From Candidatus Poribacteria bacterium (GTDB taxonomy: Bacteria > Poribacteria > WGA-4E > WGA-3G), in NCBI GenBank assembly GCA_965205025.1, contig CBDBFU010000014.1, positions 196,041 to 260,040 of the forward strand: 64,000 nt of DNA, in the 5' to 3' direction. A program made the position numbers and the translations under genes. Shown here piece after piece: positions 5,440 to 52,808 of the stretch (the stretch's first letter is position 1; the number at the start of each line of letters is the position of its first letter). The notes beneath the pieces are model-generated. The model was not told the DNA's origin. It did not search any database and saw only the letters and a list, made by a program, of their open reading frames with translations.

Positions 5440-5714
5440 TTTACGTACGCAAACTGGAAAGTTTATGCTACAATGGACTTTTATCAAACTCACTATGATG
5501 AATATGGAATTTGGACAGAATTAGATCAGGATTTCGCTGCAGCGGAGATGTTTAGAGTTTTAGAAAAAGAAGAGGTGGCAGCAGATAATGTCAATAGTTT
5601 TTCTTAAAAAATTAGGAAAATTACAGTCTAATCAGATGAATTTAATTGATATTTGTGTTAAAAATTGGCTTGGTTTGGATTGATGTGGAAATAAAGAAAG
5701 ATTCAATTATAAGT

Positions 5715-7205: not shown

Positions 7206-7230
7206 AGAGAATTTACATAAGGAAAATAAA

Positions 7231-7944
7231 TTGAAAGATAGATTGATTGTGGCATTAGATTTAGATGATGGAGAAGATATTTTCTGGTTATCTCAAGAAC
7301 TCAAGGGGACAGTAGCATGGGTTAAGATTGGATTTCAGGCATTAATCTCACTTGGTACCGAAGCATTTGCTTGGTATAGTGAAAATCTATATAAGACATT
7401 TGTTGATCTCAAATACCATGATATTCCAAATACTGTCGCCAGAGATGTTGGAACAATGACTAAACACGGTGCCGATATGATAAATATGCATGCATCCGGT
7501 GGAATGGAGATGATGCAAACTGCACGAATCAGAGCTGAGAATGTTGCTCAGGATAGCAATATTGCCAAACCAATCCTATTAGGGGTAACTATTCTTACCA
7601 GTATTGATGAAGAAGGTTTTCAATCTCAATTTGGTTCAGAAAGACAACTATCGGAACAGGTGGTTTTCCTGGCAAAACAAGCAAAAGAAGCAGGTTTAGA
7701 TGGTGTTGTTGCATCTCCATTAGAGATTGAACCGATCCGAAAAGCCTGTGGGGATGATTTTGTGATTGTCACTCCTGGAATACGTCCAAGATGGGCAGAA
7801 ACTGGAGATCAAAAACGTATTACCACGCCTGCAGAAGCAATTAATAGGGGTGCGGATTTTATTGTTGTGGGGAGACCTATTATTGAAGCAGATGATCCGA
7901 TAGAGGCTGCAGAAAGAATCTTGGAGGAGATTAGAGGAGTATAA
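7231..7944 (+). CDS. pyrF: orotidine-5'-phosphate decarboxylase
   Basis: 'LIVALDLDD', 'VKIGFQA', 'DLKYHDIPNTV' (OMPdecase signature). The track ORF 7150.. overlaps argH; TTG 7231 has AAGGAAAATAAA upstream, so the start is uncertain. Confidence 0.8.
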   Translation: MKDRLIVALDLDDGEDIFWLSQELKGTVAWVKIGFQALISLGTEAFAWYSENLYKTFVDLKYHDIPNTVARDVGTMTKHGADMINMHASGGMEMMQTARIRAENVAQDSNIAKPILLGVTILTSIDEEGFQSQFGSERQLSEQVVFLAKQAKEAGLDGVVASPLEIEPIRKACGDDFVIVTPGIRPRWAETGDQKRITTPAEAINRGADFIVVGRPIIEADDPIEAAERILEEIRGV

Positions 7945-7947
7945 ATT

Positions 7948-9366
7948 ATGAATATTATCTGTATCTGTTTAGACACGTTTCGAGCGGATATAATTGGTCA
8001 AGGAAAGAAGTTTAGCCATGTTCAGACCCCTAACCTTGATGCGTTTGCTTCTGAGAGTGTTCGATTTACAAATGCCTTTGGTGAGGGACAACCTACACTA
8101 CAGATCCGCAGGGGGAATTTCACAGGAATGCGGAGTTTTCCGTGGAGATATAATTTTGACCGACGTGGCCATTGGCATCATGCACCCGGATGGCATAAAA
8201 TACCACCAGAACAAGATACTATTGCTGAGGTGTTGTTGGATCGTGGTTATTTAACTGCTCTCATTGCAGATACATACCACATGTTTAAACCGACGATGAA
8301 TTTCTCGCGGGGATTTGCACATTTTGATTTCATTCGTGGACAAGAATCAGATAATTGGAATAGTGGTGATCCGAGATTGATTGAGGATACTCTACGTAAC
8401 CATGTCAGTGAACCTATTAATTGGAAACGGCATGCAGGATTGGTAAACTACCTCCTATCTCAAAGGCATCGAAAAACAGAAGACGATTACAGTTGTGCGC
8501 GTGTATTTCGTTCTGCTGCTGATTGGCTACAGGATAATCATACGGTTGGACCATTTTTCCTATGGGTAGATAGTTTTGATCCACATGAGCCGTGGGATCC
8601 ACCAAAATCTTACGCGGACATCTATATGTCTGACTATACAGGTAAAGATTTTATTATGGGTGGTGCTTCATCAGAAGAGGAATTAGATAGGGTTGAAGCA
8701 CTCTATCTTGGTGAAGTGACTTTTGTTGATAAATGGGTTGGGGTATTATTAGATAAGATTGAATCACTTAACATCCGGAATGAAACCCTTGTTCTTGTGA
8801 TGTCTGACCACGGCACACAACTTCGGGATCACGGTAGTTTTGGCAAAGGTGCAAATAAACTACATCCCTTCAACACACAACTGAATCTGATGATACGACA
8901 TCCTGAAGGACCACATGACAAAGATATATCTGCGTTTGTGCAGAACCATGATCTTATGCCTACTTTACTAAATATGGTTGATATTCCGTGCGGATGGACT
9001 GATGGTGAGGATATGTGGCAGCTTGTTAAAGGAGAGAAAGCATATCTGCGTGAACGAATTATTACGGGTTGGGCAGGTTTTACAACAGGGAACGCTGTTG
9101 GTCGGGTAAGTGTTCGTGATAACCGCTGGAATTTCTGTACTTCTGTCGGGTACAAAGATGAGAAGGGTGATCAACTATTTGATGTACGAAACGATACTGA
9201 AGAAAAGAATAATATAGTGAATGATCACCCAGATATTGTTTCTGAACGACGTAGGGATGTAGAAGCATTGATAGGGCAGCCATTACCTGGACATTTTATA
9301 GAGGTATGTGATCCTGGACATGCTCCAATGCGGCAATGGCTACAGAAGAAGTTATCAGAGATGTAA
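7948..9366 (+). CDS. sulfatase-like / alkaline-phosphatase-superfamily hydrolase (non-canonical FGly region)
   Basis: 472 aa; N-terminal 'CICLDTFRAD', 'VMSDHGTQL', 'WVDSFDPHEPWDPP'. It lacks a canonical C-x-P-x-R FGly motif (has C-L-D-T-F-R), so a specific sulfatase call is not supported. Good SD (GAGGAG). Confidence 0.5.
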   Translation: MNIICICLDTFRADIIGQGKKFSHVQTPNLDAFASESVRFTNAFGEGQPTLQIRRGNFTGMRSFPWRYNFDRRGHWHHAPGWHKIPPEQDTIAEVLLDRGYLTALIADTYHMFKPTMNFSRGFAHFDFIRGQESDNWNSGDPRLIEDTLRNHVSEPINWKRHAGLVNYLLSQRHRKTEDDYSCARVFRSAADWLQDNHTVGPFFLWVDSFDPHEPWDPPKSYADIYMSDYTGKDFIMGGASSEEELDRVEALYLGEVTFVDKWVGVLLDKIESLNIRNETLVLVMSDHGTQLRDHGSFGKGANKLHPFNTQLNLMIRHPEGPHDKDISAFVQNHDLMPTLLNMVDIPCGWTDGEDMWQLVKGEKAYLRERIITGWAGFTTGNAVGRVSVRDNRWNFCTSVGYKDEKGDQLFDVRNDTEEKNNIVNDHPDIVSERRRDVEALIGQPLPGHFIEVCDPGHAPMRQWLQKKLSEM

Positions 9367-9396
9367 GAATTGTAAGAGAATTAGTTGAAGGATAAA

Positions 9397-11367
9397 TTAT
9401 CTATCAGCAATTCCCATATCTTCTAAATCCCAGAGTAGAAGTGTACCGTTATTACTGCCACTGACAAGAATTGATCCATCAGGTGAAAAGGTGAATTTAG
9501 TCGGTCCTGCACTTTCCTCTGTATTGAATTGATGATATAATGATCTTGTCTCCATATCATAAATTCTGATTACCCCACCGTGTAAGCCAGTGACCATACT
9601 CTTACCATCAGGTGAGATTTCTAATCCCTCTGATGTTCCTCTTGCATCAAGAAAGTCAGCAATGTTTTCTTTAGTATCTGTATCCCACAATTTTATTTCA
9701 CCATTCCAAAGAGCAGTCAATAGTTTATTATCTGGTGTAAAGGTTACTTCTTCAATTCCATTTTCTGCCTGAATAGGTAATGTTGTTTTTGTAAAATCAT
9801 CAAGATTCCACAAATTCACTGTACCATCTTCACTTCCACTTGCAAACCACTTCCCATCAGGTGAGAATGTAACAGATCTTACATCTTCAGTATGACCATC
9901 AAGTGTTTTATATAACTTTCGATTAGGTACATCCCACAAGAAAACTCTCCCACGCCAATGACCACTCCCCAGTAGTTTTTCGTCTGGAGAGAATGCTAAC
10001 GTTAAAACAAACTCACTATATTTTCCAAGTGGTGGATAGAATTTCTGAGTCTCAGCATCCCATAACCGTACCTCACCCCAACACCCAGAAGCCACTGTCT
10101 TTCCGTCTTTTGAAAATATCATGTCAAAAGCATACCAGGGTGGTTTTGTCTGTATGAATTTTTCTGAGATACCTGTTTCATCCATATTTGTCTGTGTTAT
10201 AATACCATCTGAACCACCACTTAGAAGGGTTGCACCGTTATTAATAAAACGTACATCTTTGACAGATCCAGTATGTCCATGAATTGTTAAAAGTTCTTTC
10301 CCAGTATTTACCTCCCACACCTTCGCTGTTCCATCATCACTACCACTTACCAGTTTTTCTCCATCAGCAGAAAAGTGTAGTGCCTTAACTGGAAGAGTGT
10401 GTCCTATAAAGGTACGTTTTATTAACCTATTAGTGTTTTTCCTTTTGTTATTACCTGTAAGTGAACGTAACATCTTGGCTAATGAAGGTGTATTATCTCT
10501 CTCTATATGTGGTGAAGGTTCAAGATGCCATAGATTAATTTTTCCTCCTGTATCACCACTTGCGAATGTATTTCCATCAGGAGAAAATACGATTTTCTCT
10601 ACATTGCGTGTATGACCATCGTATGTAAGTAATTCCTCTCCAGATTTAGTATCCCAGCTTTTAAGAGTTGTAGAACCACCAACAAGTATTTTACTATCTG
10701 GTGAAATAGCTAAAGCCCACCCCTCGTAAGGAATTGTATGGAGTTTTTCTTTGGTGAATGGATCCCATAAGAAAAGCTCGTTTCTTGCAGCACTTGCGAT
10801 GTAATTTGAATCAGATGATAATGCTAAACCGTTAAACAACCCTTCTTGTTCACCAGTAAACGATAACACTTCTCGACTTGATTCAATCTCCCACATATGG
10901 TATTCAACATTACGATTCCAACTTAAGCAAGTAAGTAGTCTACCATCTGGGGAAAATACCAAGGATTTTACACTCCCAATTCTTTCTTTCATTACCGTAA
11001 GGAGTTCACCTTTATTGACATCCCATAATTCTACTGCACCTCCTATAACCCAGTTTCCTATAGCGAGTGTGTTACCATCTGGGGCAAATGCAATACAATT
11101 TACATTCCGAACACCTCGTGGTTTTACCTTAAGGAGAGATATTTCAGTTCCCGTATGCGCGTCATAAATCCAAACACCTATATCCGAAGCCACTGCCAAC
11201 CGTGAACCGTCCGGAGACAATTTCATATCGTTGATTCCTCCTTTACCGATACGCATTATCGCTCCATCAGGTAAGTGCCATTGGTTATAATCTTGGACTT
11301 GACTGGTTGAATGGAATACAATGAATTGCATTAGTATGCAGGTTAGAATAAGAAAAGTCTTCTTCAT
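9397..11367 (-). CDS. secreted WD40-repeat beta-propeller protein
   Basis: 656 aa; N-terminal signal peptide MKKTFLILTCILMQFIVFHS; more than 10 WD40-like units with recurring 'SPDG', 'W(D/N)' and 'GH' patterns. Confidence 0.7.
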   Translation of the reverse strand: MKKTFLILTCILMQFIVFHSTSQVQDYNQWHLPDGAIMRIGKGGINDMKLSPDGSRLAVASDIGVWIYDAHTGTEISLLKVKPRGVRNVNCIAFAPDGNTLAIGNWVIGGAVELWDVNKGELLTVMKERIGSVKSLVFSPDGRLLTCLSWNRNVEYHMWEIESSREVLSFTGEQEGLFNGLALSSDSNYIASAARNELFLWDPFTKEKLHTIPYEGWALAISPDSKILVGGSTTLKSWDTKSGEELLTYDGHTRNVEKIVFSPDGNTFASGDTGGKINLWHLEPSPHIERDNTPSLAKMLRSLTGNNKRKNTNRLIKRTFIGHTLPVKALHFSADGEKLVSGSDDGTAKVWEVNTGKELLTIHGHTGSVKDVRFINNGATLLSGGSDGIITQTNMDETGISEKFIQTKPPWYAFDMIFSKDGKTVASGCWGEVRLWDAETQKFYPPLGKYSEFVLTLAFSPDEKLLGSGHWRGRVFLWDVPNRKLYKTLDGHTEDVRSVTFSPDGKWFASGSEDGTVNLWNLDDFTKTTLPIQAENGIEEVTFTPDNKLLTALWNGEIKLWDTDTKENIADFLDARGTSEGLEISPDGKSMVTGLHGGVIRIYDMETRSLYHQFNTEESAGPTKFTFSPDGSILVSGSNNGTLLLWDLEDMGIADR

Positions 11368-11541
11368 GATATGTTCCTCATATTTATTCTATTTGATTCG
11401 GTTTGGAAACCGAACCTATCGTTGTTTTTATTAAATTATAAGATGTGACATTCAATTCTTAGTATTTGATTACAATACAGTATAACATTATTCAGTAATA
11501 TTGATACAGTTTTCAACGTGACCTATAAATACTGGTTCATC

Positions 11542-12172
11542 GGTGTGTATAGAATTATATACCATAGGCGTCAATTTAGGAGAAAAAATGTTGTATCCCA
11601 GACCGGTAGGTGCGGTTTCCCAACCGCACTATTGGGCCTCAATTTTAGACTATGACTTTATTGGTTTTGAGTCCCGGGGAATGCCTAAATGGCATTCATA
11701 CCGTTGATTTGGTAGGGACGGAATGTCTATAGAAAAAGGATCAATTAACAAAATGAGTCCCGTAGGGACGGAATGTCTATAGAAGTGGTTATCACCAATA
11801 TCCCAAGCCCCGGTGAATGCCATAAGGCATTCATACCCGGTGAACGCCAAAAGGCGTTCATACCGTTGATTCCTTGATTCGCGGGGCGAAAGGTGTGTAG
11901 AAAACGTATAAACACAAAACACTAAGCCCCGGTGAATGACTAATGAAGATTAACTAAATATTTCGGTAATTCTAATTTTCCCAAACCCGGTAGGTGCGGT
12001 TTCCTAACCGCACTGGATCTTTCTCCAAAATTACCGAATTTAAAAATTAATCTTCATATGTCATTCATACCCGGTGAACGCCAAAAGGCGTTCATACCGT
12101 TGATTCCTTGATTCGCGGGGCGAAAGGTGTATCCCTAAATTGACGCCTATGGTGTGTATAGAATTATATACC
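11542..12172. mobile_element. composite non-autonomous element: 17-bp perfect TIRs (ATAGGCGTCAATTTAGG / CCTAAATTGACGCCTAT) enclosing nested palindromic units, flanked by a perfect 22-bp direct repeat GGTGTGTATAGAATTATATACC
   Basis: Direct repeat at 11542-11563 and 12151-12172; TIRs at 11564-11580 and 12134-12150. The interior holds hairpin families C (GGTGCGGTTTCC.AACCGCAC), D (GAATGCC..A..GGCATTC + ATACCGTTGATT), E (GTCCCGTAGGGAC + GGAATGTCTATAGAA) and F (GCCCCAGCGGGGC + GAAATGTGTGTAGAAAAC), plus a 114-bp family-B MITE (11944-12057) inserted inside a D hairpin that is itself inside an F hairpin. Confidence 0.6.
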
Positions 12173-12375
12173 TACCCAATGATAGATCTTTATATGTAAG
12201 ACACCGGTGTGCTATAAAGGGTACATACAACAGAAAAATCCAACGCATCTATGCAAGCTTCTCGGCAAGTCAAATAATTAGTTGTGTCAAAATTAATTGA
12301 TTATGGTATAGGTTTTTAGTATAATATCAAACAGGAAGATAACTCCAAAATTTTCATTATTTTAAGGAAAAGAAT

Positions 12376-13146
12376 ATGCAACGTAAAAGCTCCCGATCAA
12401 AATACTGTATGGGTGAACTGATTGAACGTGAAGATTTTTCTGAAGATTTAGCCGCCTTCAAATTCAAGACTGACCAAAAACTCCCGTTTATTCCTGGACA
12501 ATATGCTACCATCGGTTTTGAAGTGAATGAAAAGATTGTTCAACGACCCTATTCAATTGTATCATCACCTCACGAAGATTTTATGGAGGTGTTTGTAGAA
12601 TTGGTACCGGAAGGTGCTACAACTCCACTGTTTTGGGAATTGAAACTTGGCGATAGTGTTTTTATCAGGGATCGTCTTGTTGGGAAGTTTGTTATGGATG
12701 TGGATAGTGGTATGACCCGTCATGTTATGGCAGGAACAGTTACAGGGGCTGCTCCTTATATCAGTATTGCTCGGACGTTGAAGATTGAACAGGAACAGGG
12801 TAAATCGAACCCGCATGAGATTCTTACTATTGTTGGGGCAAGTCGTTCATGGGAACTTGGGTATTATATGGATGAGCTGAATGAACTTGCTGCTCAGGAG
12901 GAATGGTTTAGTTTTGTGCCTACTGTGAGCCGTCCCTGGGAAGATGAAAAGTGGGAAGGTGAGAGTGGACGTGCTGAAGATGTTATCCGTAAATATGGGG
13001 ACGAGATGGGGTATGATCATACGAATTCAGTTGTTTATGCGTGTGGACATCCACAGATGATTGAGAATTCCAAGGCTATTTGGTCACGTGCACGTTTCCC
13101 TGAGGAACGGATTAAAGAGGAGAAGTTTTTTGTAATTAAGGAGTAG
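12376..13146 (+). CDS. ferredoxin--NADP+ reductase-like FAD/NAD(P)-binding oxidoreductase
   Basis: 'RPYSIVSSP' (RxYS FAD motif), 'GTVTGAAPYISI' NAD(P)-binding region, 256 aa; SD AAGGAAAAG. Confidence 0.65.
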   Translation: MQRKSSRSKYCMGELIEREDFSEDLAAFKFKTDQKLPFIPGQYATIGFEVNEKIVQRPYSIVSSPHEDFMEVFVELVPEGATTPLFWELKLGDSVFIRDRLVGKFVMDVDSGMTRHVMAGTVTGAAPYISIARTLKIEQEQGKSNPHEILTIVGASRSWELGYYMDELNELAAQEEWFSFVPTVSRPWEDEKWEGESGRAEDVIRKYGDEMGYDHTNSVVYACGHPQMIENSKAIWSRARFPEERIKEEKFFVIKE

Positions 13147-13185
13147 GTTTGACGGAGAATTGTTAAAAGATTGCATGTTAAATAA

Positions 13186-13232
13186 ATAGCGGTAACTGAT
13201 GAATTGTGCTTCGGTTACCGCTTTCTTTTTAG
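13186..13232. terminator. bidirectional rho-independent terminator between convergent genes
   Basis: AGCGGTAAC...GTTACCGCT 9-bp stem followed by TTCTTTTT; A-rich on the other side. Confidence 0.55.
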
Positions 13233-13237
13233 TAATA

Positions 13238-15724
13238 CTATTTTACTTTTCTTAGTAAATCTCTAAGATAATTTGAAGGAACAGCGAAGTTGATATTTTG
13301 TGCGCGATTTACTTTTGCTTTCGGATCAACCCTATAGTATGCCAATGTAGCGATTCCCACGACATTACCTTTATTGTCTAATACAGCTCCACCACTACTC
13401 CCTGGTGAAATAGCAGCTGTCATTTGTAACCATTTGCTTTTTCCTGTATCTCTAATGCTACTTATTATACCATCTGAAACAGTTCCTTCTAATCCTTCAG
13501 GATTACCAACAGCATAGATTTTCTCACCTACTTCGACCAGATCGCTATTGGATAAAGATAATGGGTTTGTTGTTGCCCCAGAAACTCTTAGTATAGCAAG
13601 GTCATGTTCTATATCAGTTGCTTCTATGCTCTCTACCTTGAACCTAATAGTCGTATCTACTAATCTTGCCGTTATCAATGAAGATCCTTTAATAACATGG
13701 TAGTTTGTCGCAATTAAATCACGTCGTACAAAAAAGCCACTTCCTAAACCAACTACATCACCCTTCGCATTTAGTCTGTTGAGGAACACAGTTGACGACA
13801 GTGCTTCTTGAGCAATTTGTTGTCCAGTTAGTTGAAGGTTAGATTGTTTTGTTCTTGAATTATCGTTAGGTGTAATGTGTTTATTGGGTAAATCCTTTTC
13901 TTGCTGATGTAGACTCTCTTTAAGTTTGTCCATATTACAGATAAATATTGAACCGTTTTCACAACCAATAATCAATGATCTTTGATCCTTAGAAAAAACA
14001 ATTGAAGTTATTTCACTTGGGTATGGGAGTAATGATATTTGCCCCTTGCTTTCAAAATTCTGTTGATATTGAGCTAATAAAATCTGACCCTTTTTATTCC
14101 CTATGAGAAGTATTGAATCTTCATGTCGATATCCTAAAGCTGATATAGTACCGATTGGTCCTAAATCAATACCATTTCCTATTTCTCTTCCAGTTAAGGC
14201 ATCCCATTTCCTGAGAGTACCATTTTGTTCCCCACTGAATAATATGCTACCATCTGATGAAAATGTTAAAGATGTGATAGGGTGCTGTGCCCCTGTGAGT
14301 TTCTTTAACACTCTTTCAGTTTGAATATTAAATATATAGATGTTCCCGTCGGCACCACCTGTAGCGATCACAGAATTTCTTGGTGATATTGCTAAAGCTG
14401 AGATTCCATGCGGATTTCCATTAAATCTATGAGAAACAGTTGTCGTCTGAATTGAATTTTTGTTACTAAGAATTTTCTGTACTTCAGATAAAAACACAGT
14501 TCCATCATAGCTGCCTCCACTTGCGACATGTCTTCCATCATTAGAAAATATAACGGATTGGGTTAGATCAAAATGATCCCGTATTGTAGAAAGTTCGCTG
14601 CTTGTACCTGCATCCCATATTCTGAGTTTTCCATCTAAACCTGTACCACTTGCCCGAATACGATTATCTTCAGTATACACTAATGCTTTTATCCTACCAG
14701 TATGTCCAGAAATGTCAAACTTTTTCCTCTCTCCAATTACATCCCATACAAACACTGTTCCATCTGGACTTCCACTTACAATAATCTTACTATCAGATGA
14801 ACAGTCAAGTACAGAAACTTGGTCTTTATGGCCTTTTAATGGATTCTGTTGTTCGGTATATGTCTGTGTATTCCATATTCGTATTAACTTGTCAGCACTT
14901 CCAGTAACTAATGAATTACCATTGGATAGATAACTTACTGTATAGACTGGACTCTCATGTGAGATTGTAGAGTTGAGTTTCCCACCGACACCAACTAAAC
15001 TCCATACTCTAACCGTTTGGTCTGTACTGGCACTGACTAACTTTTTTCTGTCAGGCGAAAAAACTACCTGTTCAACAGGTTTTGTATGTTCAGTAAATAA
15101 GTAAATCTGATCACCTGTATTTGCATCCCATACTTGAATAGTTCCATTTACACTACCACCCGCTACTAATTGACTATCAGACGAGAAAGCAACAGTCAAC
15201 ACGGTATCTCTATATGGTAATAATTTCGATTCTATTCTATCCCTATGATGAGCAGGAAAATTTGCAAGATTCCATAGTCTAATATTGTTATCTGCACTGG
15301 CACTTGCAAGTTTTGATCCATCAGGAGAGTATGTTAAATCATATATTTTCTTATTATGTCCCCTAAGAGTGTTTTTTTCTATATCCTGGTTTCTTCTGAC
15401 AAGATTCCATAATCTTATGGTTCTATCTTGATGGGCTGCGGCTATGTACCGTCCATCAGGAGAATATGAGATAGCGTTTGCACCACCCATAATCCCTTCG
15501 AATCTATGCACTTCACGACCTGTCCTGCTATCATATATCCAAATACCAATTGTAGTTGCTACGGCAAATTGGTCCCCATTAGGAGAAAATTTTATATCCT
15601 GAATCCATCCTTTTCCTAAGCGTTCTTCAACGAAGGCTGGAAGATTATCTTGAGCAATTAAATGTGGTGTGATAATTAAAATGAGAACTTCACAGAATAA
15701 TAACAAATACAATAATTTCTTCAT
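13238..15724 (-). CDS. secreted WD40-repeat protein fused to a C-terminal trypsin-like (S1/HtrA-type) serine protease domain
   Basis: 828 aa; signal peptide MKKLLYLLLFCEVLILIITPHLIA; about 600 aa of WD40 units. The C-terminus has 'GSGFFVRRDLIATNYHVI' (His), a D, and 'GSSGGAVLDNKGNVVGIA' (GxSGG catalytic Ser), the trypsin_2 layout. No PDZ domain. Confidence 0.7.
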   Translation of the reverse strand: MKKLLYLLLFCEVLILIITPHLIAQDNLPAFVEERLGKGWIQDIKFSPNGDQFAVATTIGIWIYDSRTGREVHRFEGIMGGANAISYSPDGRYIAAAHQDRTIRLWNLVRRNQDIEKNTLRGHNKKIYDLTYSPDGSKLASASADNNIRLWNLANFPAHHRDRIESKLLPYRDTVLTVAFSSDSQLVAGGSVNGTIQVWDANTGDQIYLFTEHTKPVEQVVFSPDRKKLVSASTDQTVRVWSLVGVGGKLNSTISHESPVYTVSYLSNGNSLVTGSADKLIRIWNTQTYTEQQNPLKGHKDQVSVLDCSSDSKIIVSGSPDGTVFVWDVIGERKKFDISGHTGRIKALVYTEDNRIRASGTGLDGKLRIWDAGTSSELSTIRDHFDLTQSVIFSNDGRHVASGGSYDGTVFLSEVQKILSNKNSIQTTTVSHRFNGNPHGISALAISPRNSVIATGGADGNIYIFNIQTERVLKKLTGAQHPITSLTFSSDGSILFSGEQNGTLRKWDALTGREIGNGIDLGPIGTISALGYRHEDSILLIGNKKGQILLAQYQQNFESKGQISLLPYPSEITSIVFSKDQRSLIIGCENGSIFICNMDKLKESLHQQEKDLPNKHITPNDNSRTKQSNLQLTGQQIAQEALSSTVFLNRLNAKGDVVGLGSGFFVRRDLIATNYHVIKGSSLITARLVDTTIRFKVESIEATDIEHDLAILRVSGATTNPLSLSNSDLVEVGEKIYAVGNPEGLEGTVSDGIISSIRDTGKSKWLQMTAAISPGSSGGAVLDNKGNVVGIATLAYYRVDPKAKVNRAQNINFAVPSNYLRDLLRKVK

Positions 15725-15780
15725 ATTGTTCCTTGATTTATATCTATATTACATCCTATGTTTATTATGAATTCCTAAGA

Positions 15781-17733
15781 TTATTCAGTTATTGCATCTC
15801 TAAGTTGTATGGCAGACTCGTATGTAGCATCAATTTCTAACGCCATATTTACATGATGTAATGCATATTCAAAGGAATCCAACCCATAATACGCAATTGC
15901 TAAGTTAAAATATGCCTTCTTGTATTGGTTGTCTATTTCTATCGCATTCATTAGGGGTTTTATAGACTTTTCATATTCACCCTTATGGATATATGCGAAT
16001 CCTATCTTAGCGTGTATTCTTTTATCATTTCTATCCAGTTCAAGACATTTATTTAATTCATTTATCCCAATATCTAACATGTTCTTATCAATAAAACTTG
16101 ATCCACGGACATAATATCTGTCCTTTATGTCAGATAATAACAATTCTGCAATTTCTAATCCTGGCTTAGTCTCTAATGCTCTTTTAGCAAATGAAACTGC
16201 TTCCTCAAGTTCATCATTATTATAGTGAATTCGACCTTCTTCCACAAATATATCCTCTCTTGTAGGTTCAGGTTTAAGACCATTCTGATCAGAGATATTA
16301 TTTGATTTTCCTACTATACGTCTCTTTATTTCTTGCATTTCATTTAGCATTTCTAAGTTATCACTATAGGCACTTACTCTAAATCTTTTATCTGCAGTAT
16401 CTATTAAATTAATAATTATACTATATATGTCATTTGAATCATCCGTACCATCTGCGATATATGAATAAGCCTTAACTAAATGTAAATAAGAACTAATTAA
16501 ATCCATTCTTTCTATGTACATAGGATATGCATACTCACTAATAAGTATATTGAAATATTCAATTGATTCCTTATAATATTCTTTGTTATTGCCTCCAGCC
16601 ATGTAATAACAATAACCGCACCAATATAGTGCGTAGACTTTGTCATCAGACAATAAATCACTAATTGCCAATCGTTTAAATAGAGTAGCTGCTTCTAAGA
16701 ATTTACCATTAAAACGTAAGGAAGTTGCCTTACGGAAAAGATCTGAGTTATTAGTTTTTGGTCCTACAGTTTCATCCATATCTTCTGGAACAAAATATGT
16801 TTCTTTAGATTTATTGTCCAATAATTGTTTATATGTTGGGTTGTTAGTCCTATCAATTGCTAACTGATAGTATCTTCGTGCCTCAGGATAATTGCTCACA
16901 TCAGTATAGATATCAGCAATTAACTCATAAGCTTTAGATAAATACTGACTATTTGGGTTGTCTGTAATCGTTTTTAACACTAAAAATGCATCGAATGCCT
17001 TATCTTGTTTTTTTAACTCAACGGCTGTTTGATAAAGGGTTTCATCAGTGAGTTGTTTGTTCTCAGCATTTTCGTCCCTATCCACATTGACATTTTGAGT
17101 TTTATTATTTTCCACTAAAAGATTTGATAAACGGTGTTCTATATCAGTACGATAGTTTGTAGTTGGAAATTCATCAATTAGTCGGTTAAACGCAGCATGA
17201 GCTTCTTCATAGTTTCGTGGGTTAGAATTTATTATACCAATTTTATATAATGCTTCTTCAACTAATGAACTCTGAGGATATAGCCGAATAAAGTGAGAAT
17301 ATTTTTCATCAGCTTCCAAAGGCATTTTGTTCTTATATAATATTTCTGCCCATAAGAATGTAAGATTTGACTTATGTCGGATCTCATTAGTGTTTGATAT
17401 AGATTGTCGGATATGATTCAATGCAATCGGATAGTATTTCTGTCTGTTGAAATCACTAATTTCACCCAGTTTTTCATAACACAGTGCAATCTTATAATTT
17501 GCCAGGCCCGTGAAGTCGTTATCAATGAATTTAGGTCTTGCTCCGACTTTGTTGGAGGCTTTTATTGCTTTCTTATAGATCTTTATTGCTTCCTCGTATT
17601 TTCGAATTTCAAATAAATTTTCAGCATGATCATAATGTTTCTCGACTTTCTTTGCACTTCCTAAAACAAGAGGGGATAGTAAAGCAATTATTAATGCCAC
17701 TCCTCCAATTATTCCGAGAGTTTTTGTATCCAT
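15781..17733 (-). CDS. membrane-anchored TPR-repeat protein
   Basis: 650 aa; N-terminal TM 'LGIIGGVALIIALLSPLVLG'; multiple TPR-like A..Y...G patterns. Confidence 0.6.
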   Translation of the reverse strand: MDTKTLGIIGGVALIIALLSPLVLGSAKKVEKHYDHAENLFEIRKYEEAIKIYKKAIKASNKVGARPKFIDNDFTGLANYKIALCYEKLGEISDFNRQKYYPIALNHIRQSISNTNEIRHKSNLTFLWAEILYKNKMPLEADEKYSHFIRLYPQSSLVEEALYKIGIINSNPRNYEEAHAAFNRLIDEFPTTNYRTDIEHRLSNLLVENNKTQNVNVDRDENAENKQLTDETLYQTAVELKKQDKAFDAFLVLKTITDNPNSQYLSKAYELIADIYTDVSNYPEARRYYQLAIDRTNNPTYKQLLDNKSKETYFVPEDMDETVGPKTNNSDLFRKATSLRFNGKFLEAATLFKRLAISDLLSDDKVYALYWCGYCYYMAGGNNKEYYKESIEYFNILISEYAYPMYIERMDLISSYLHLVKAYSYIADGTDDSNDIYSIIINLIDTADKRFRVSAYSDNLEMLNEMQEIKRRIVGKSNNISDQNGLKPEPTREDIFVEEGRIHYNNDELEEAVSFAKRALETKPGLEIAELLLSDIKDRYYVRGSSFIDKNMLDIGINELNKCLELDRNDKRIHAKIGFAYIHKGEYEKSIKPLMNAIEIDNQYKKAYFNLAIAYYGLDSFEYALHHVNMALEIDATYESAIQLRDAITE

Positions 17734-17757
17734 ACTAACTCCTTATTCTTTCGGGAC

Positions 17758-20022
17758 TTAATCTATCGGGTCTGGACCGAGTACTCTTAATGTAAGATCT
17801 TTTTCTGCAATTGTTTTATTTTTACTATCAACCAATGTAATATTCAATTTATTACTTGATGTAACAGCTCTCGTATTAGATGTGATTTTTATATTTATAG
17901 TTTCATTCTTATTCTTGGTTATATTGAATCTATTATTGGGAATAGTAAATTGTAATCCTTTTATGGAATTAGGAGATATCCTCAAACTGATGTTTCTTGC
18001 TGTACTTCCACTATTTGCTATTTTTAGATTTAAACTATAATCCTGTCCAGAAAAGATTTGATTAGATGGTTTCCCATATCTATTTAGCAATGTAGTTTCA
18101 ATTGAAAGTTTGGGCTGAATTTGATTTTTAGAAGTTTTTCTGTTAGAACTAGTATTTGTATCTGAACTGTCCTTATTATGAACTGTCTGATTACTTTGAT
18201 TTTTTCCATCCGTTTGTTTACGATTTGAATCGAAGATATCAAAGAAAGTAAATACATCATACCGATATGCAATAAACAATCCAGCAAAAACTACTAAGAC
18301 TATAGAAGCATACAAAAGTACTTTCTTTCTCTTTTTGTCATTCTTTTCAACCTTTTGAATAAACTTTATCGTCTGAATGATATCCTGCGATGGTTTATGA
18401 TTAGGGTTAAGTGCTAATGCCTTTTCTGCTGCAAGTTTGGCATTAGTATAATCACCCATGGCAAGATAGGTGTCACCTAAACGAGAATGACCATCAATAT
18501 GGTTGGGATCAGTCTGAATAACCTTTTGGAATGAATCAACAGCTTGATCATATTGTTTTATATTTAGAAACACTAAACCCCGTTCCAATTCCTTATCTAT
18601 ATCAATATCTTCTTGAGGTACAATCTCATTTTTAACCTCTTCACCATCAGAATCTTCTGAACGTTCAACCTCTATCTCAGACAACAATTGTTTTGCGTCA
18701 GGTGAATTTTGATCAATCCGTAATACCTCTTGGACTGAACTTTCCGCTTCATCTAATTGCTGGTTCTGAAAGTATGCTTTTGCCAAACCAAGATGAGCAT
18801 CAGCATAATCAGATTTAAGATCTAAAGCATTCTGAAATTCGCTTATAGATTCGTCTATCTTACCGGCATCAAGGTATGCCATTCCAGTTGCATAATGTGC
18901 TTCATGTCTTGGTTGAGTTGTAGTTGTTGAATCTGTAGTTTTTGGTGTAGCATTTTGAGTTTCATCTGTAGTATCGTTAGAATCAGCTTTATATGTAGGA
19001 TCTATTGCTTCTAAAAGTGTCTTAGCAGGTTGATAATTTGGATCAATTGATAATGAATCTTTTGCAGCATTTCTTGCATTGTCAAGTTCACCTAAACCAA
19101 GGAATGTGAGTGCAAGACTATGATGTGCTTCCTTATTCCTTGGATCAAGTGATATAGTTTTTTGCAGATTATCTAATGCTCTAGGATAGCTCTCCAATTT
19201 CAAATGTGCTACTGCCAGATTATATTGTGCAGCAGTATAACCTGGATCAAGGGTAATGACATTCTGGAGTGAGGCTATTGCATCACTATAACGTTCATCT
19301 TTGAGAAATGTGATTCCATTGTTGTAATGTGTTTGTTTAATTGATTCTACAAGAGCATGAATTGGTTGGAATTTAGGATCAAGTCGAAGAGTCTCTATAG
19401 CAGCATTCGTTGCAGCTTCTAAATTCCCTAACTCTCTATGGGCACGAGCAAGGTAGTAGTGTGTTTCTATTTGATTAGGATTTCTAACGATTGCGTCATC
19501 AAGGTATTGAATGGCATCTTGATATTGTTTTATTTCAACAAAAGCATTTCCTATGAGATAATAGACATCGTCATAACTATTGTTAGATGAAATAGAGCTT
19601 TTTAATGAGTCAACTGCTTTCTCATAGTCCTTAAGACCCAGATAAGATCGACCAAGGTTATAATTCGTATCTTTATAATCAGAATCAAGTATTATAACTT
19701 TTTCAAATGTAGTGACTGCATCCTGATAGTTTTTACCTTCTAATAATGTAATACCATTTTCGTAATGTGTGGTTTTTATTGTTTCACTTATGTCTTTCAC
19801 TGAAGGATAATCAGGATTCAGTTTTAAAGCAGCAAGAATAGAGAGTTCGGCTTTGTACAGATCATTTAACTCCAAATAGGCGCGACCGAGTCCACAGTGA
19901 GCATCAATATAATCAGGATCCACTTGAATCACTGCTTCGAATTCTGGAATAGCCTCTTTATACTGTTGATCATTTAGATATGCGATGCCGAGATTGTAGC
20001 GTGCTTCTTTTATGGCATTCAT
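17758..20022 (-). CDS. TPR-repeat protein with a central TM helix and an Asn/Thr-rich C-terminal beta-domain
   Basis: 754 aa; about 12 TPR units ('YNLGIAYL...', 'GLGRAYLEL'); TM 'VLLYASIVLVVFAGLFIAY' near aa 560; the C-terminal 170 aa is a low-complexity N/T/S-rich domain. Confidence 0.6.
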   Translation of the reverse strand: MNAIKEARYNLGIAYLNDQQYKEAIPEFEAVIQVDPDYIDAHCGLGRAYLELNDLYKAELSILAALKLNPDYPSVKDISETIKTTHYENGITLLEGKNYQDAVTTFEKVIILDSDYKDTNYNLGRSYLGLKDYEKAVDSLKSSISSNNSYDDVYYLIGNAFVEIKQYQDAIQYLDDAIVRNPNQIETHYYLARAHRELGNLEAATNAAIETLRLDPKFQPIHALVESIKQTHYNNGITFLKDERYSDAIASLQNVITLDPGYTAAQYNLAVAHLKLESYPRALDNLQKTISLDPRNKEAHHSLALTFLGLGELDNARNAAKDSLSIDPNYQPAKTLLEAIDPTYKADSNDTTDETQNATPKTTDSTTTTQPRHEAHYATGMAYLDAGKIDESISEFQNALDLKSDYADAHLGLAKAYFQNQQLDEAESSVQEVLRIDQNSPDAKQLLSEIEVERSEDSDGEEVKNEIVPQEDIDIDKELERGLVFLNIKQYDQAVDSFQKVIQTDPNHIDGHSRLGDTYLAMGDYTNAKLAAEKALALNPNHKPSQDIIQTIKFIQKVEKNDKKRKKVLLYASIVLVVFAGLFIAYRYDVFTFFDIFDSNRKQTDGKNQSNQTVHNKDSSDTNTSSNRKTSKNQIQPKLSIETTLLNRYGKPSNQIFSGQDYSLNLKIANSGSTARNISLRISPNSIKGLQFTIPNNRFNITKNKNETINIKITSNTRAVTSSNKLNITLVDSKNKTIAEKDLTLRVLGPDPID

Positions 20023-20195
20023 TGTCTCGTTGAAATAGAGAAGAATCAGACAGAGTATATTTTGAACATTTTATTACAATATATGTAAATTATCAAGAAT
20101 GAAATCTAAAAGATGGCAATTATCTTGAAATGTAAAGTTGTTTTTGATAAACTTCCAATTTAGTAGACAAACTTTCTCATAAACGAGGTAAGAAA

Positions 20196-21315: not shown

Positions 21316-22191
21316 TTAACAATCTACATCTTTTCCATCACTACCATATACACCCATTCTATCCTGTGTAGATATCTCTTCAGAACTTGCAGGTTTATAA
21401 TGTAATTGTAGTGCTCTTCTACGTTTTGGAGTTTGATTTGCGGGACTTCCATGATGTGTTAATCCGTGCCAAAACAGACAGCCACCTGGTTGAAGTGGCA
21501 CAACTGTATCGCGAGCAACAGGAACATCAGTATCACAGATTTGCCAATCCCTTCGTTTGAAATGGATCATTGGACCTTCAATATGTGAACCGGGTATGAT
21601 GTGCATACAACCGTTTTCTGCTGTGGCTTCATCTAAGGCAATCCAAACACCAACAACAATTGTGCTTCTCTGAAGATTGAAGTATGCCAAATCTTGATGC
21701 CACGGTTTTTCTGATCCGAAAATAGGGGGTTTTACTAATGCCATATCTTGGAACAATACAGGTGTATCATCCATAATTCGTTGTAAAATACCGAGTAATC
21801 CTTGATGGTCAGCAATAGCATTCAGCCGAGGTTCGTGACTAACATAGTTGAATATTTTCCGAATAGCATCACGACGTTCGTCAGGATTCATCTCATCCTT
21901 AGCCTTTACAAGTTTAGGTTCAAATTGGATTGCTTTAAAGTCAGGATTGTTCCCATCCATCAGATATACCATACCTTCTAAAGCGGATTTTATTTCCTCC
22001 TGTGAAAAACCATCTTCAATTACAAGATATCCATGTTGATGAAAGTAGGCAATATCATCGTCTGTTACAGAGGAAAATCCACCTGTAATACTGTGAGCAA
22101 TAGTATCGAATCGGTATAGCTCCTCAGGATATGGTATAGGTGGGACAGTAGGATCGGTGTTTTGTGGATTAGTTGATGAATGTTGATTCAT
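21316..22191 (-). CDS. phytanoyl-CoA dioxygenase (PhyH)-family Fe(II)/2OG oxygenase
   Basis: 'FHQHGYLVIED', 'PWHQDLAYF' (HxD), 'IIPGSH'; 291 aa. Confidence 0.6.
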   Translation of the reverse strand: MNQHSSTNPQNTDPTVPPIPYPEELYRFDTIAHSITGGFSSVTDDDIAYFHQHGYLVIEDGFSQEEIKSALEGMVYLMDGNNPDFKAIQFEPKLVKAKDEMNPDERRDAIRKIFNYVSHEPRLNAIADHQGLLGILQRIMDDTPVLFQDMALVKPPIFGSEKPWHQDLAYFNLQRSTIVVGVWIALDEATAENGCMHIIPGSHIEGPMIHFKRRDWQICDTDVPVARDTVVPLQPGGCLFWHGLTHHGSPANQTPKRRRALQLHYKPASSEEISTQDRMGVYGSDGKDVDC

Positions 22192-25287: not shown

Positions 25288-27390
25288 TTATTCTTCAATT
25301 ACTTCATCATCTATTGCCGGTTCAATTACTTCGTCATCTATTATTGGTTCAATGGGTTGAACTTCGACTTCAATTTCTGTGTCTCCAGTCACAATAAACC
25401 TATTTACGATGAATGGCAGACCAGTAATTGGTACTGGTAATGGTTCCTCAATTTCTTCCTGTAGTTCACCATCGTCAGGTAGTTCACCGTCTTCAGGTAG
25501 TTCACTGTCATCTGGCATTTCACCATCGTCAGGTAGTTCACCGTCTTCAGGTAGTTCACTGTCATCTGGCATTTCACCGTCCTCTGGGAGTTCACCATTA
25601 TCAGGTAGTTCACTGTCTTCACCTATATCAGGTTCTGGTAGGTTCTCGAACAATGTGGTAAAGAATTGTTCAAAGAAATTTTCAAAAAGTTCTTCGATTT
25701 CTGGATCGAGCATTTCAGGTTCATCCTCTAATGCAGCAAGCGTTACAAGGACTAATCCTTTATCATACTGACCATCTTTGAGTTGATATATCAGTTGATC
25801 TAAACTCTCTGGAGATGGAGCATTCTGTATACCAAAAGGATTGAAACCGAAAGTTGTCGCAGAGGTGACGGCTAAACGAGCTGGACCAGGTATGAAGTTT
25901 TCAGGTATTTGGAGTTTAACTTCTCTATACATCTTCCGATTTCTACCAGCAGCACTCCAATGTGGTAACATCTCAACGACAAAAGTTGCTTCTTCACCCT
26001 GTTTAATTTCACCAACAACATGAATATCAGTTATCTCTGTGTGTAGAATATATGGTATATCTATGAGAGATATCTTGACTTCATCAATGGTTGCTCTTTC
26101 AGCACCATTATAGAGAATATTGGATAATGGTTGAATTATTGATTTCATATTTTCCAATACAGCTTTAAACGGGTCTGGTGCGATTGTTCTGAATGATTCT
26201 GTATAGACAGTATCAGTTTCTTTAAAACTAATTGCGACATTGGCTTCAATTGTACCCGGACTAACTTCCATTCGAATTGAATCCAGTGTTGTAGCAACTA
26301 CAACTGGAATTGCCCATTCTTGACCATATGCTACCTCATGGTTTTTCTGAATAGGTACTTGACTGTTGACGGGTTTATAATACACAGTAACAGGAATCAT
26401 ATCAGGTAATTTACCAAGTTCACCTACAATACCAGGCCTAAGGTCTTTGGTAATTGTACCTATTGGATTCCCATAAGCAGAAGCAGATTTATATGCAATT
26501 TCTGTATTCGGAACTATTCCATCAACTACAGCTCTGTATACAGGGAGTGACACCTTGCCAGCACGAAACATGTCATGACCAAAGGCAACAAAATTCCCAT
26601 CATAAACCTGAGTGACAGTTCCAAAACCTATACTGTTTACAACATCACCGGTTGCGATTGCAACACCAATCATGTCACCCGCAGAAAGTTGTAATGTCGC
26701 ATTTGCTGGTGGGGCAACAGGAGCACCGCCTATCCTTGAGAAAAATTGCACAGAATCAAAATGTGTACCGCTAAGATGATCCGAAAGTTGTTGTAACCTG
26801 TTGTTGTCAACACCAGAGATTGTAACTGGAGTCTTCACTTTGGTAAAGGTCGCTTTTATTCCACCGCCTGGAGCAGCAGGTGGATTCAAAATATCACCAA
26901 AGGTTGTATGGTTAATGGTCGCTTCCATAGCTTCAATTGGTGTAACCAAAAATCTATATGGAGCTTTAGCCCAGGCGTCCCCATAAGCAAGAGCACCGAA
27001 CACTCTTCCTGGAGGTCCAACTGGACTACCCGACATACCTTGTGCAACTCCTCCCATTGCTGTCACTGCTTCGTCGGTAAGAACACATTCATAGAGTGGA
27101 AATCCAAATCCAGAAGGTTGAATTCTACGAAATTCAGCTTCAAAAGCTACTTTACTCGTTCCTTCAATGGCAGTAATTACTTCTATACGGGTCTTAGTTG
27201 CAAGTTTACTGACTTCAGCTTCATACATCGGTTCAAGCACTACTTCTCCAACCAAAGGTGCTCCATTAAATACATTTGATACATCAGCAATAGTTGGATT
27301 TTGAACTTCAGGTTGTTCTTCATCCTGAGAACAACCGAATTGTATTATAATTGCTAATGTAATAAAAGCTATAACAAAATATCGTTTCAT
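25288..27390 (-). CDS. lipoprotein with a putative SpoIVB-type (peptidase S55-like) serine-protease motif and a C-terminal acidic Pro-rich tandem-repeat tail
   Basis: 700 aa; signal plus lipobox-like 'LAIIIQFGC'; 'GMSGSPVG...GALAYG...PIEAM' resembles the SpoIVB 'GMSGSP' catalytic-Ser region (from memory, moderate); C-terminus '(ELPEDGELPDDGEMPDDS)n' then 'IEPIIDDEVIEPAIDDEVIEE'. Confidence 0.5.
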   Translation of the reverse strand: MKRYFVIAFITLAIIIQFGCSQDEEQPEVQNPTIADVSNVFNGAPLVGEVVLEPMYEAEVSKLATKTRIEVITAIEGTSKVAFEAEFRRIQPSGFGFPLYECVLTDEAVTAMGGVAQGMSGSPVGPPGRVFGALAYGDAWAKAPYRFLVTPIEAMEATINHTTFGDILNPPAAPGGGIKATFTKVKTPVTISGVDNNRLQQLSDHLSGTHFDSVQFFSRIGGAPVAPPANATLQLSAGDMIGVAIATGDVVNSIGFGTVTQVYDGNFVAFGHDMFRAGKVSLPVYRAVVDGIVPNTEIAYKSASAYGNPIGTITKDLRPGIVGELGKLPDMIPVTVYYKPVNSQVPIQKNHEVAYGQEWAIPVVVATTLDSIRMEVSPGTIEANVAISFKETDTVYTESFRTIAPDPFKAVLENMKSIIQPLSNILYNGAERATIDEVKISLIDIPYILHTEITDIHVVGEIKQGEEATFVVEMLPHWSAAGRNRKMYREVKLQIPENFIPGPARLAVTSATTFGFNPFGIQNAPSPESLDQLIYQLKDGQYDKGLVLVTLAALEDEPEMLDPEIEELFENFFEQFFTTLFENLPEPDIGEDSELPDNGELPEDGEMPDDSELPEDGELPDDGEMPDDSELPEDGELPDDGELQEEIEEPLPVPITGLPFIVNRFIVTGDTEIEVEVQPIEPIIDDEVIEPAIDDEVIEE
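25455..25630. repeat. in-frame 54-bp tandem repeat (about 3.3 copies) encoding an 18-aa acidic unit ELPEDGELPDDGEMPDDS
   Basis: Plus-strand unit GGCATTTCACCATCGTCAGGTAGTTCACCGTCTTCAGGTAGTTCACTGTCATCT repeats with few substitutions. Confidence 0.8.
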
Positions 27391-52664: not shown

Positions 52665-52808
52665 CGTGAGTTTGATAATAGGTTTATGAACTTCATTTTA
52701 TCTAAAATATTACTCTCATAGACCCGGTAGGTGCGGTTTCCTAACCGCACTGAATTCAAAAATTTGAGTTTTCAAACTCACGTAGAAGATAGATTGTTAA
52801 GGTCATAA

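Follow-up and report, generated by a model that had tools for sequence, protein, structure and literature searches.

Does a protease domain that is fused to WD40 propellers define the module in which it is found, or is it an accessory to it? The question is raised by three adjacent genes, designated A, B and C, in a 64,000-nucleotide stretch of chromosomal DNA (~37% G+C) from a Candidatus Poribacteria bacterium (GenBank assembly GCA_965205025.1, contig CBDBFU010000014.1, positions 196,041 to 260,040), referred to here as the window. Members of the phylum Poribacteria are abundant in sponges and the ocean and have yet to be cultivated. A first-pass annotation, made from the letters of the DNA alone, had described the 828-residue product of C as a WD40 propeller protein with a C-terminal S1-type protease, the products of A and B as membrane proteins with tetratricopeptide repeats (TPRs), and the three together as an envelope-associated scaffold and protease module. 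All three open reading frames (ORFs) were found where that annotation had placed them. Existing annotations name the products only as a 'trypsin-like peptidase domain-containing protein' and a 'tetratricopeptide repeat protein', and a literature search found no publication describing the A-B-C operon. Discussion of the many 'eukaryote-like' WD40 and TPR proteins found in Poribacteria has centred on a part in host interaction, and defined systems have not been assigned to them (PMC3909097).

The results described below show that the conserved, co-evolving core of the locus is B together with the WD40 double propeller of C, while the protease domain is an accessory that has been lost repeatedly and exchanged by recombination. 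The envelope location that the first-pass annotation had proposed is likely, and the genes proved to be co-conserved; its view of proteolysis as the core of the module was not, given a domain that is absent from ~40% of species, disrupted in others and exchanged between close relatives. The reading preferred here, in which A, B and C form an inner-membrane-anchored, Poribacteria-specific scaffold with an optional protease, was assigned a probability of about one half.

Domain structure of C

Pfam recognized WD40 repeats in C (278.6 bits, 10 repeats called), with many propeller families matching from residue 40 to ~600, and Trypsin_2 (PF13365) at residues 661-791, which scored 102.4 bits against a cut-off of 27.6 (E 4.8e-29) over the full profile, positions 1-144. 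The AlphaFold2 model (pLDDT 83.0, pTM 0.66) has an N-terminal helix at residues 2-22, 50 β-strands arranged in fours between residues 32 and 597, and a protease fold at residues 634-828. Between the last two lies a linker with a pLDDT of 29-35 at residues 611-630, a stretch that was highly variable in an alignment of 16 homologues (46-83% identity). C has the two propellers of ~7 blades each that characterize a WD40 double propeller, and the best Foldseek matches of the model were the tandem propellers of 2ymu (E 3e-39), Aip1 (1nr0, 'two seven-bladed propellers') and Utp proteins.

The last 217 residues of C matched solved DegP, DegQ and HtrA chains (E ~4e-22; 5y28, 6z05), and C ended where the protease domain ends in the alignments to DegP and DegQ. 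The motifs TNYHV (His676), HDLAIL (Asp708) and GSSGG (Ser777) of C aligned with TNNHV, DLAVIR and GNSGG, respectively, in DegP and DegQ. His676, Asp708 and Ser777 were invariant in the 16 homologues, as were ~35 further positions of the protease domain. Pfam and the structure alignments thus agree with the fusion that had been described, including the histidine in TNYHVI and the GSSGG motif, and the triad, on which the first-pass annotation had made its proposal depend, was intact on alignment to DegP and DegQ. Its invariance suggests that the domain is catalytically competent.

The N-terminus of C was kept in all aligned homologues as MKK, a hydrophobic run and A-Q-D, with Ala24 invariant and Q/D-D next in most, which points to a Sec signal peptide with a putative cleavage site (Table 1). 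A lipoprotein was considered and rejected, as Cys11 is neither part of a lipobox nor conserved. An exact-sequence look-up of C returned no record.

The nearest NCBIfam models to the protease part were Do/DegP, HhoA/B and DegS, all far below their cut-offs; the curated HtrA scores were 118.8 against 416.2 bits for TIGR02037, 93.6 against 422.95 for DegS and 82.9 against 800 for MamE. C resembles HtrA, DegP, DegQ and DegS (MEROPS S1C) in that ~170 residues align (E ~1e-22), the triad lies in the conserved motifs TNxHV, DLA and GxSGG, and export is by a signal peptide. It differs from them in four respects: 1) there was no PDZ domain among the 25 best Pfam matches, in accord with the first-pass annotation, 2) no curated family score was reached, 3) the domain is C-terminal, behind ~600 residues of WD40 propellers, and 4) species can do without the domain, which recombines as a cassette. 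In HtrA proteases such as DegP and DegS, PDZ domains normally sense substrates and exert allosteric control. As the protease of C has no PDZ domain, control must come from partners.

The architecture had been called uncommon, a description that needs to be narrowed, as it is not rare among Poribacteria or in this protease subfamily. A search with full-length C returned 5505 proteins at E<=1e-10, and the best 120 clusters (90% identity) all contained Trypsin_2 and shared the architecture of C; nearly all were full-length proteins of ~800-870 residues with 42-94% identity, and the few with a named source were all 'Candidatus Poribacteria bacterium'. When the last 228 residues of C were compared exhaustively with 1.84 billion cluster representatives, 795 clusters matched the protease region at E<=1e-30. 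Among the best 149 of these, 13 also matched the WD40 region of the window protein and ~50 matched the TPR region of A. In the repeat-fused clusters the protease was found at either end or in tandem copies, the reverse order of Trypsin_2 followed by WD40 was confirmed in one example, and at least one repeat-plus-Trypsin_2 cluster holds a Poribacteria protein. The frequency of such fusions among the best clusters indicates that they are a common theme of this PDZ-less subfamily.

Loss and replacement of the protease domain

One genome per GTDB species was scanned with family-specific peptide patterns (231 relatives, 79 loci kept). ORFs were called in all loci and compared with the window proteins, which gave 54 species-level loci with a C orthologue. 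The fusion of WD40 repeats and protease was present in 30 of them. Another 21 had, at the same position, a clean WD40-only orthologue of 586-643 residues ending just past the second propeller, and no protease-like ORF was found within 10 kb of these genes. The other three comprised a gene cut by the end of the contig (L027), a frameshifted full-length gene (L058) and a gene with a protease remnant (L033), equivalent to residues 709-828, that lies behind an 880-nt insert full of REP-like (repetitive extragenic palindromic) sequences. Among the 30 fusions, the one in locus L021, a complete chromosome assembly, has its protease split by an insertion of ~600 nt at 12277..12873. When a tree was built from the WD40 part, the genes without a protease fell into one large clade and at least four scattered branches, which argues for repeated loss. 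The protease domain is accessory, being absent in ~40% of the species-level orthologues, and the propeller protein is the conserved element.

Where both parts are present, their identities to the window protein were uncorrelated (r = 0.15, 115 full-length homologues). The closest relative (P0001) has 96% amino acid identity in the propellers against 68% in the protease, and the next relative 93% against 59%. The DNA of locus L085 was 99-100% identical to the window across B and the WD40 part and 63-78% identical across 13211..14161. Counted per 60 nt, there were 0-2 mismatches over 3 kb, 20-25 from ~14161 to 13211, and one after the stop codon. Loci L086 and L087 showed the same drop in identity. 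L085 has a second, smaller island of divergence in the extracytoplasmic linker of A.

A larger exchange was seen in MSPOR6 (L053), in which 5659..11686 corresponds to 20022..13238 of the window. The flanks were 82-95% identical in DNA, with 99% identity for the FNR-like protein encoded next to C and 84% for a second WD40 protein beyond it, whereas from residue ~450 of A through B to the end of C the DNA identity was only 52-65% and the protease was absent. The block is an allelic replacement of ~5 kb, replaced as a unit, with one breakpoint inside A. The protease domain itself is a recombination cassette with sharp breakpoints. All of its alleles keep the invariant catalytic core; they are taken to be functional variants and not products of decay.

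Covariation of B with the propellers

Pairwise distance matrices of the parts were compared by Spearman correlation in the 22 taxa that had all parts. The coefficient for B and the WD40 part of C was 0.83, compared with 0.35-0.58 when either of these was paired with the TPR part of A or with the FNR-like gene, and 0.35-0.46 when the protease part was paired with everything else. The outer domain of A and its TPR part gave 0.73. Adjacency alone is not the cause, because the protease adjoins the WD40 part and the tail of A adjoins B. B and the propellers are probably a co-adapted, interacting pair, and this pairing, taken with the signal peptide of C, suggests that the TPR domain of B faces the periplasm.

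Distribution and organization of the three genes

Poribacteria accounted for 77 of the 79 loci kept; the other two, from Leucothrix and a metagenome-assembled genome, gave weak matches to the propeller part only. Since the peptide patterns are family-specific, the scan shows presence throughout Poribacteria and leaves room for distant relatives elsewhere. Among the scanned loci, the complete trio was obtained from Candidatus Poribacteria genomes only, and the full-length homologues of B that carry a source name were all from Poribacteria. Besides sponge- and coral-derived assemblies, the operon was present on a TARA metagenome scaffold, which was taken as an ocean-water sample.

The order A-B-C, with short gaps, was found in 41 of the 54 species-level loci; the remaining 13 were mostly short contigs, loci with a split A gene, or loci with a rearranged order. 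The gap between A and B in the 41 loci ranged from -8 to +18 nt (median 10) and was often -1 or -4, which corresponds to overlapping stop and start codons. The gap between B and C ranged from -4 to 784 nt, with a median of 151. In the window, the two gaps are 24 nt, with AAGGAG ahead of the start codon of B, and 56 nt, with AAGGAA ahead of that of C, and a site scan found no terminator-like sites in either. The genes are co-directional and tightly spaced, as had been noted, but the fusion is not the first of them: on the minus strand the order of transcription is A, B, C, and C is the last gene of the block.

The trio is bordered by a divergent gene 5' of A, across an intergenic region of 173 nt, and by a hairpin and a convergent gene 3' of C. 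The gene on the 5' side was always divergent and differed between lineages, encoding a Gfo/Idh/MocA oxidoreductase in the window and a prephenate dehydrogenase elsewhere, with the trio intact; the gene on the 3' side was usually the convergent FNR-like gene. The promoter-like site 45 nt 5' of A is a weak call, because such sites were no commoner in the region than in shuffles (36 against 34.2 expected). The stem-loop 3' of C (-16.7 kcal/mol, z = -4.1, with none of 200 shuffles folding as well) is accompanied by a U-run and is likely a bidirectional terminator. An Rfam scan of the window found three tRNAs only, none of them within the A-B-C region. The spacing and the flanking signals suggest that A, B and C are one operon.

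Conservation of the arrangement in related genomes, another point on which the first-pass annotation had let its proposal stand or fall, was found across the phylum, even where the genes have been rearranged. In L049 (8052..15451) and L052 (6514..13948) the order is C, A' (a shorter A), B in an unrelated neighbourhood, and L056 (8139..13206) has C and A' only. The clusters of L049, L052 and L056 follow conserved ORFs of 785 and 559 residues. The genes with these two ORFs might be further partners of the cluster.

Topology of A and B

Both membrane proteins conform to their first description, B as a membrane-anchored TPR protein of 650 residues and A as a TPR protein with a transmembrane (TM) helix and, on its other side, an Asn/Thr-rich β-domain. 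The tail of A is rich in Asn, Ser and Thr. Pfam recognized eight TPR_1 repeats in A (230 bits). The repeats extend from residue 1 to ~560, and the protein has no N-terminal signal sequence. In ~45 orthologues of A there is a single TM helix ~130-160 residues from the C-terminus, the net charge of its flanks being mostly +5 to +8 on the N-terminal side and ~0 on the C-terminal side; under the positive-inside rule, this predicts a cytoplasmic TPR array and a tail on the outside. The first part of the tail is a low-complexity linker, rich either in Asn, Ser, Thr and Lys or in proline. The domain that follows gave sub-threshold matches only, to Ig_VWA7, FixG_C, CARDB, DUF11 and a designed Ig domain, and the last 220 residues of A matched nothing at E<=0.001 among 5.8 billion proteins. 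It is probably an Ig-like β-sandwich, a label that, as the matches are sub-threshold, refers to the fold and not to a family.

In B, a hydrophobic helix at the N-terminus precedes the TPRs, and the AlphaFold2 model (pLDDT 84.6) consists of a helix at residues 3-23 and then ~30 helices arranged as a TPR solenoid. The motif of the N-terminal helix was nearly invariant in ~48 orthologues, in which the rest of B was only 28-40% identical, and residues I8, G10, G11, L14, A17, L18, L19 and S20 were each at least 90% conserved. As cleaved signal peptides are not conserved in this way, the helix appears to be a functional membrane anchor and not a cleaved signal peptide; it is possibly also a site of helix-helix contact. 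Another TPR protein encoded in the window (29738..31714, minus strand, 658 residues) is, like B, rich in TPR_6/BamD-like repeats.

A proposed scaffold with an optional protease and its alternatives

The conservation of the signal peptide of C and of the TM helices of A and B makes an envelope location likely. In the preferred reading, translational coupling of their genes would keep A and B in a constant ratio, and the two might associate via their TM helices. A would cross the membrane once and present its TPR platform to the cytoplasm and its small Ig-like domain to the outside. B, anchored by its conserved helix, would hold the double propeller of C with a periplasmic TPR solenoid, and C would be exported via its Sec-type signal peptide and dock on B through the WD40 double propeller. 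The protease, on a flexible linker of ~25 residues, would cleave proteins that the propellers and TPRs bring close to it; the choice and positioning of targets would fall to the propellers and the TPR partners instead of to PDZ-mediated recognition of C-termini. Since the protease has been lost or swapped while the rest was kept, it would add to the module or tune it and not define it. The physical interaction of A, B and C, the periplasmic placing of the TPR domain of B, the activity of the protease and the nature of the substrates are postulates of this scheme.

Several points weigh against the scheme: 1) distance correlations such as that between B and the propellers can arise from a shared recombination history instead of from contact, 2) the flank charges of the helix of B are ~0 on both sides, so that its orientation is unreadable from them, and B cannot bind C if its TPRs are cytoplasmic, 3) the spacer between B and C reaches 700-860 nt in some lineages, where C may have its own promoter, 4) a profile of the C-terminal domain of A found no significant family match among PDB sequences and Pfam, and 5) co-transcription is a deduction from the arrangement of the genes.

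The alternative that survives best, although unlikely, is signalling of the DegS/RseA kind. C would be the site-1 protease, with propellers in place of the PDZ sensor, and a periplasmic cue would lead to cutting of the tail of A and to the release or re-organization of its TPR platform. The protease domain is indeed closest to DegP/DegQ/DegS-type domains, and A crosses the membrane once, its juxtamembrane linker being disordered and of low complexity and its outer domain small. Moreover, the two most divergent islands of L085 are the linker of A and the protease segment of C, a pattern that co-adaptation of an enzyme and its substrate would give; the linker, however, is of low complexity and may simply evolve fast, and the distances of the protease and the outer domain of A were weakly correlated (0.35, 22 taxa). 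In Pfam, A matched TPRs but no anti-sigma domain and C gave no PDZ match, and the annotated neighbours include no extracytoplasmic function (ECF) sigma factor or site-2 protease, the sole sigma factor found in the window being RpoD-like. Signalling of this kind cannot hold in the ~40% of species in which A, B and the propellers are retained and the protease is missing.

A conflict or host-interface system, in which the propellers and TPRs are sensors or adhesins facing phage, host or competitors and the protease is a polymorphic effector under diversifying selection, is improbable. It would account for a C-terminal cassette that is replaced with sharp breakpoints and has been lost repeatedly, and for a protease domain whose relatives very often share a polypeptide with TPR or WD40 repeats, placed before or after them. 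PADLOC also gave matches to RT-Protease defence genes (RT-Protease_XI, 65.6 bits), at the level of domains only, and a part in host interaction has been proposed for the 'eukaryote-like' WD40 and TPR proteins of Poribacteria (PMC3909097). The published trypsin-effector conflict systems (Kaur, Iyer, Burroughs, Aravind; PMC8195603) likewise pair a trypsin-fold peptidase as effector with super-structure repeats as sensors and vary in domain make-up. Those systems are cytoplasmic, with STAND or other NTPases and adaptors, whereas here there is a signal peptide, no NTPase and a syntenic chromosomal locus; Pfam found no NTPase/STAND, TIR, caspase or adaptor domain, and there was no system-level match to STAND or ternary conflict systems or in PADLOC. 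C shares with polymorphic toxins a conserved N-terminal part and a recombining C-terminal effector. Unlike in those toxins, C is followed not by an immunity-like gene but by the convergent, highly conserved FNR-like gene, and the effector folds are not unrelated, all cassette alleles being Trypsin_2 with the same invariant core. The position is fixed between housekeeping genes and is not a variable island, and the operon on the TARA scaffold shows that it is not restricted to sponge- and coral-derived assemblies.

A third possibility, on which we place little weight, is that the trio is a hitherto undescribed, Poribacteria-specific transmembrane device in which C, as a WD40-sensor HtrA protease, acts on the tail of A or on targets held by B and thereby couples the periplasm to the cytoplasmic TPR platform, the swapping of the cassette and of the linker of A reflecting co-adaptation or a host/phage arms race. 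Ordinary periplasmic quality control, in which C is one HtrA paralogue, the TPR neighbours are unrelated and the synteny is due to descent, is likewise doubtful: it would fit the HtrA-type fold and triad and the conserved order of the whole region in Poribacteria (including the FNR-like gene, a sulfatase, an orotidine monophosphate (OMP) decarboxylase and a lyase), but a housekeeping protease would not vanish in ~21 of 54 species with its propellers retained, no swap would be expected between strains that are 99-100% identical, the HtrA equivalog and subfamily models are far below cut-off (118.8 against 416.2 bits) with no PDZ domain, and the trio remains adjacent after relocation with B co-varying with the WD40 part.

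Relation to known systems

The proposed scaffold with an optional protease has partial parallels. Prolyl oligopeptidase/DPP-IV and tricorn also combine a propeller and a serine peptidase in one polypeptide, the propeller presumably gating substrates. Their catalytic domains are of the α/β-hydrolase or tricorn type and the propeller caps the active site, whereas C has a chymotrypsin/HtrA fold on a disordered linker of ~25 residues.

The periplasmic flagellar scaffold of Campylobacter jejuni contains the TPR proteins PflA and PflB and the HtrA-derived PflC, which has no triad (PMC12222027), and so unites periplasmic TPR proteins with an HtrA-family module in a structural assembly. The model of B matched the PflA and PflB chains of 9hmf weakly (TM-score ~0.2); the Foldseek matches of B, these included, were judged to be generic TPR solenoids and not specific. 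PflC has two PDZ domains and a lost triad, whereas C has no PDZ domain and an invariant triad, and there are no flagellar genes near C.

The accessory proteins of the Tol-Pal and BAM systems (TolB, BamB, CpoB/YbgF, BamD) similarly combine periplasmic β-propeller and TPR proteins with a membrane-spanning partner. All scores for these families were sub-threshold, however: B gave 53.9 bits against a cut-off of 81.4 for BamD and 50.4 against 90.1 for YbgF, and the 656-residue WD40 paralogue of C gave 27.7 against 343 for TolB. The propellers of C are of the WD40 type and double, not of the TolB or BamB type, and there are no adjacent genes for TolQRA, Pal or BamA. A magnetosome set of MamA, MamE and MamO was also rejected, A scoring 187 (the sum of five repeats) against 200 for MamA, with 26.6 against 800 for MamO and the equally low MamE score given above. 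The NCBIfam matches to MamA, MamE, BamD, YbgF, PilW, GltE, FlcA and BatC, all below cut-off, reflect generic TPR or protease similarity.

New here is the combination of an HtrA-type domain, with propellers where a PDZ domain would be expected, and a three-gene envelope module that is specific to the phylum and shows unusual cassette dynamics. The locus is a concrete phylum-wide module, with a fixed gene order, a predicted topology and a co-varying pair, and it offers a natural experiment on HtrA, in which propellers replace PDZ and the catalytic domain is detachable, recombines and can disappear while everything else stays. Should the scaffold reading be true, it would be a bacterial example of WD40/TPR assemblies that organize the envelope.

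Features and neighbourhood of the locus

The coordinates of the three genes, their domains and the neighbouring features are collected in Table 1.

Table 1. Positions in the window of genes A, B and C, of their predicted parts and of adjacent features
Feature	Position	Strand	Residues	Remarks
Gene A	17758..20022	minus	754	TPR array, one TM helix, low-complexity linker, β-rich C-terminal domain
TM helix of A (predicted)	18265..18321	minus	568-586	Preceded by KKRKK; hydropathy 2.54
C-terminal domain of A (predicted extracytoplasmic)	17761..18102	minus	~641-754	~115 residues; β-sandwich-like alternating pattern in alignment
Gene B	15781..17733	minus	650	N-terminal TM helix, then TPR solenoid
TM helix of B (predicted)	17665..17727	minus	3-23	Motif (R/K)xWGIIGGVALxLALLSPLVLG
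Gene C	13238..15724	minus	828	Signal peptide, WD40 double propeller, linker, PDZ-less HtrA-type protease
Signal peptide of C (predicted)	15653..15724	minus	1-24	Putative cleavage between ...LIA and QD
WD40 region of C	13934..15631	minus	32-597	13-14 blades; two propellers of ~7 blades
Helix and disordered linker of C	13826..13933	minus	598-610 (helix), 611-633 (linker)	Between propellers and protease
Protease domain of C	13241..13825	minus	634-828	HtrA-type (S1C-like, Trypsin_2)
Triad codons of C	13697..13699; 13601..13603; 13394..13396	minus	H676; D708; S777	
Recombination-replaced segment	13211..14161	minus		Last propeller blades, linker, protease and stop codon; relative to closest relative
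Promoter-like site	20068..20096	minus		TTGATA-17-TAAAAT; 45 nt 5' of A; 10/12 consensus matches
Stem-loop (likely terminator)	13179..13222	minus		9-bp stem AGCGGUAAC/GUUACCGCU, then UAUUUAUUU; between convergent C and FNR-like gene
FNR-like oxidoreductase gene	12376..13146	plus	256	FAD_binding_6 and NAD_binding_1; convergent with C
Second WD40 gene	9397..11367	minus	656	Signal-peptide-like N-terminus, double propeller, no protease

The second WD40 protein, also predicted to be secreted, is a paralogue of the propeller part of C (25% identity, E 1e-49). It had been placed just upstream of the block; the gene is present, but it lies downstream of C, beyond the FNR-like gene. It was found within 10 kb of C in many, not all, loci and is a frequent but not obligatory neighbour. 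An exact-sequence look-up of this paralogue (P0258) found no record. The FNR-like protein was 84-99% identical across Poribacteria species, compared with 30-50% for its neighbours, an unusually strong constraint for such an enzyme.

Short REP-like palindromes, for example GGTGCGGTTTCC(C/T)AACCGCAC and GAACGCCAAAAGGCGTTC, crowd the 1-kb spacer that separates the second WD40 gene from the FNR-like gene (11389..12172; also at 52730..52751), and the spacer contains a 76-nt direct repeat as well. The palindrome GGTGCGGTTTCC(C/T)AACCGCAC occurs four times in the window, with none expected, and also in nine other Poribacteria loci (L033 at 11846..12253, L008, L010, L055, L062, L071, L072, L079 and L084). 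The occurrence in L033 is within the insert that destroyed its protease domain. The palindromes look like a phylum-wide family of small repeats tied to local rearrangement. In L001 (13817..15619) and L087 (13763..15574), one or two extra genes lie between the FNR-like and second WD40 genes, encoding a WD40 protein of 346 or 603 residues and, in L001, also a 250-residue ORF; no remnant of the extra WD40 gene was found in the palindrome-rich spacer of the window.

Elsewhere in the window there are housekeeping genes for MutS2, DnaG, the RpoD-like sigma factor (50311..51918) and TruA, together with the three tRNAs. A gene at 25288..27390 on the minus strand encodes a 700-residue protein with a weak SpoIVB/S55 peptidase match. 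The distribution of phyH genes and phyH gene clusters in Poribacteria is given in supplementary tables of Kamke et al. 2014. In the window, a PhyH (phytanoyl-CoA dioxygenase) gene confirmed by Pfam (21316..22191, minus strand) lies within 20 kb of a second PhyH gene (4484..5338, plus strand), which was assigned from the syntenic gene in relatives.

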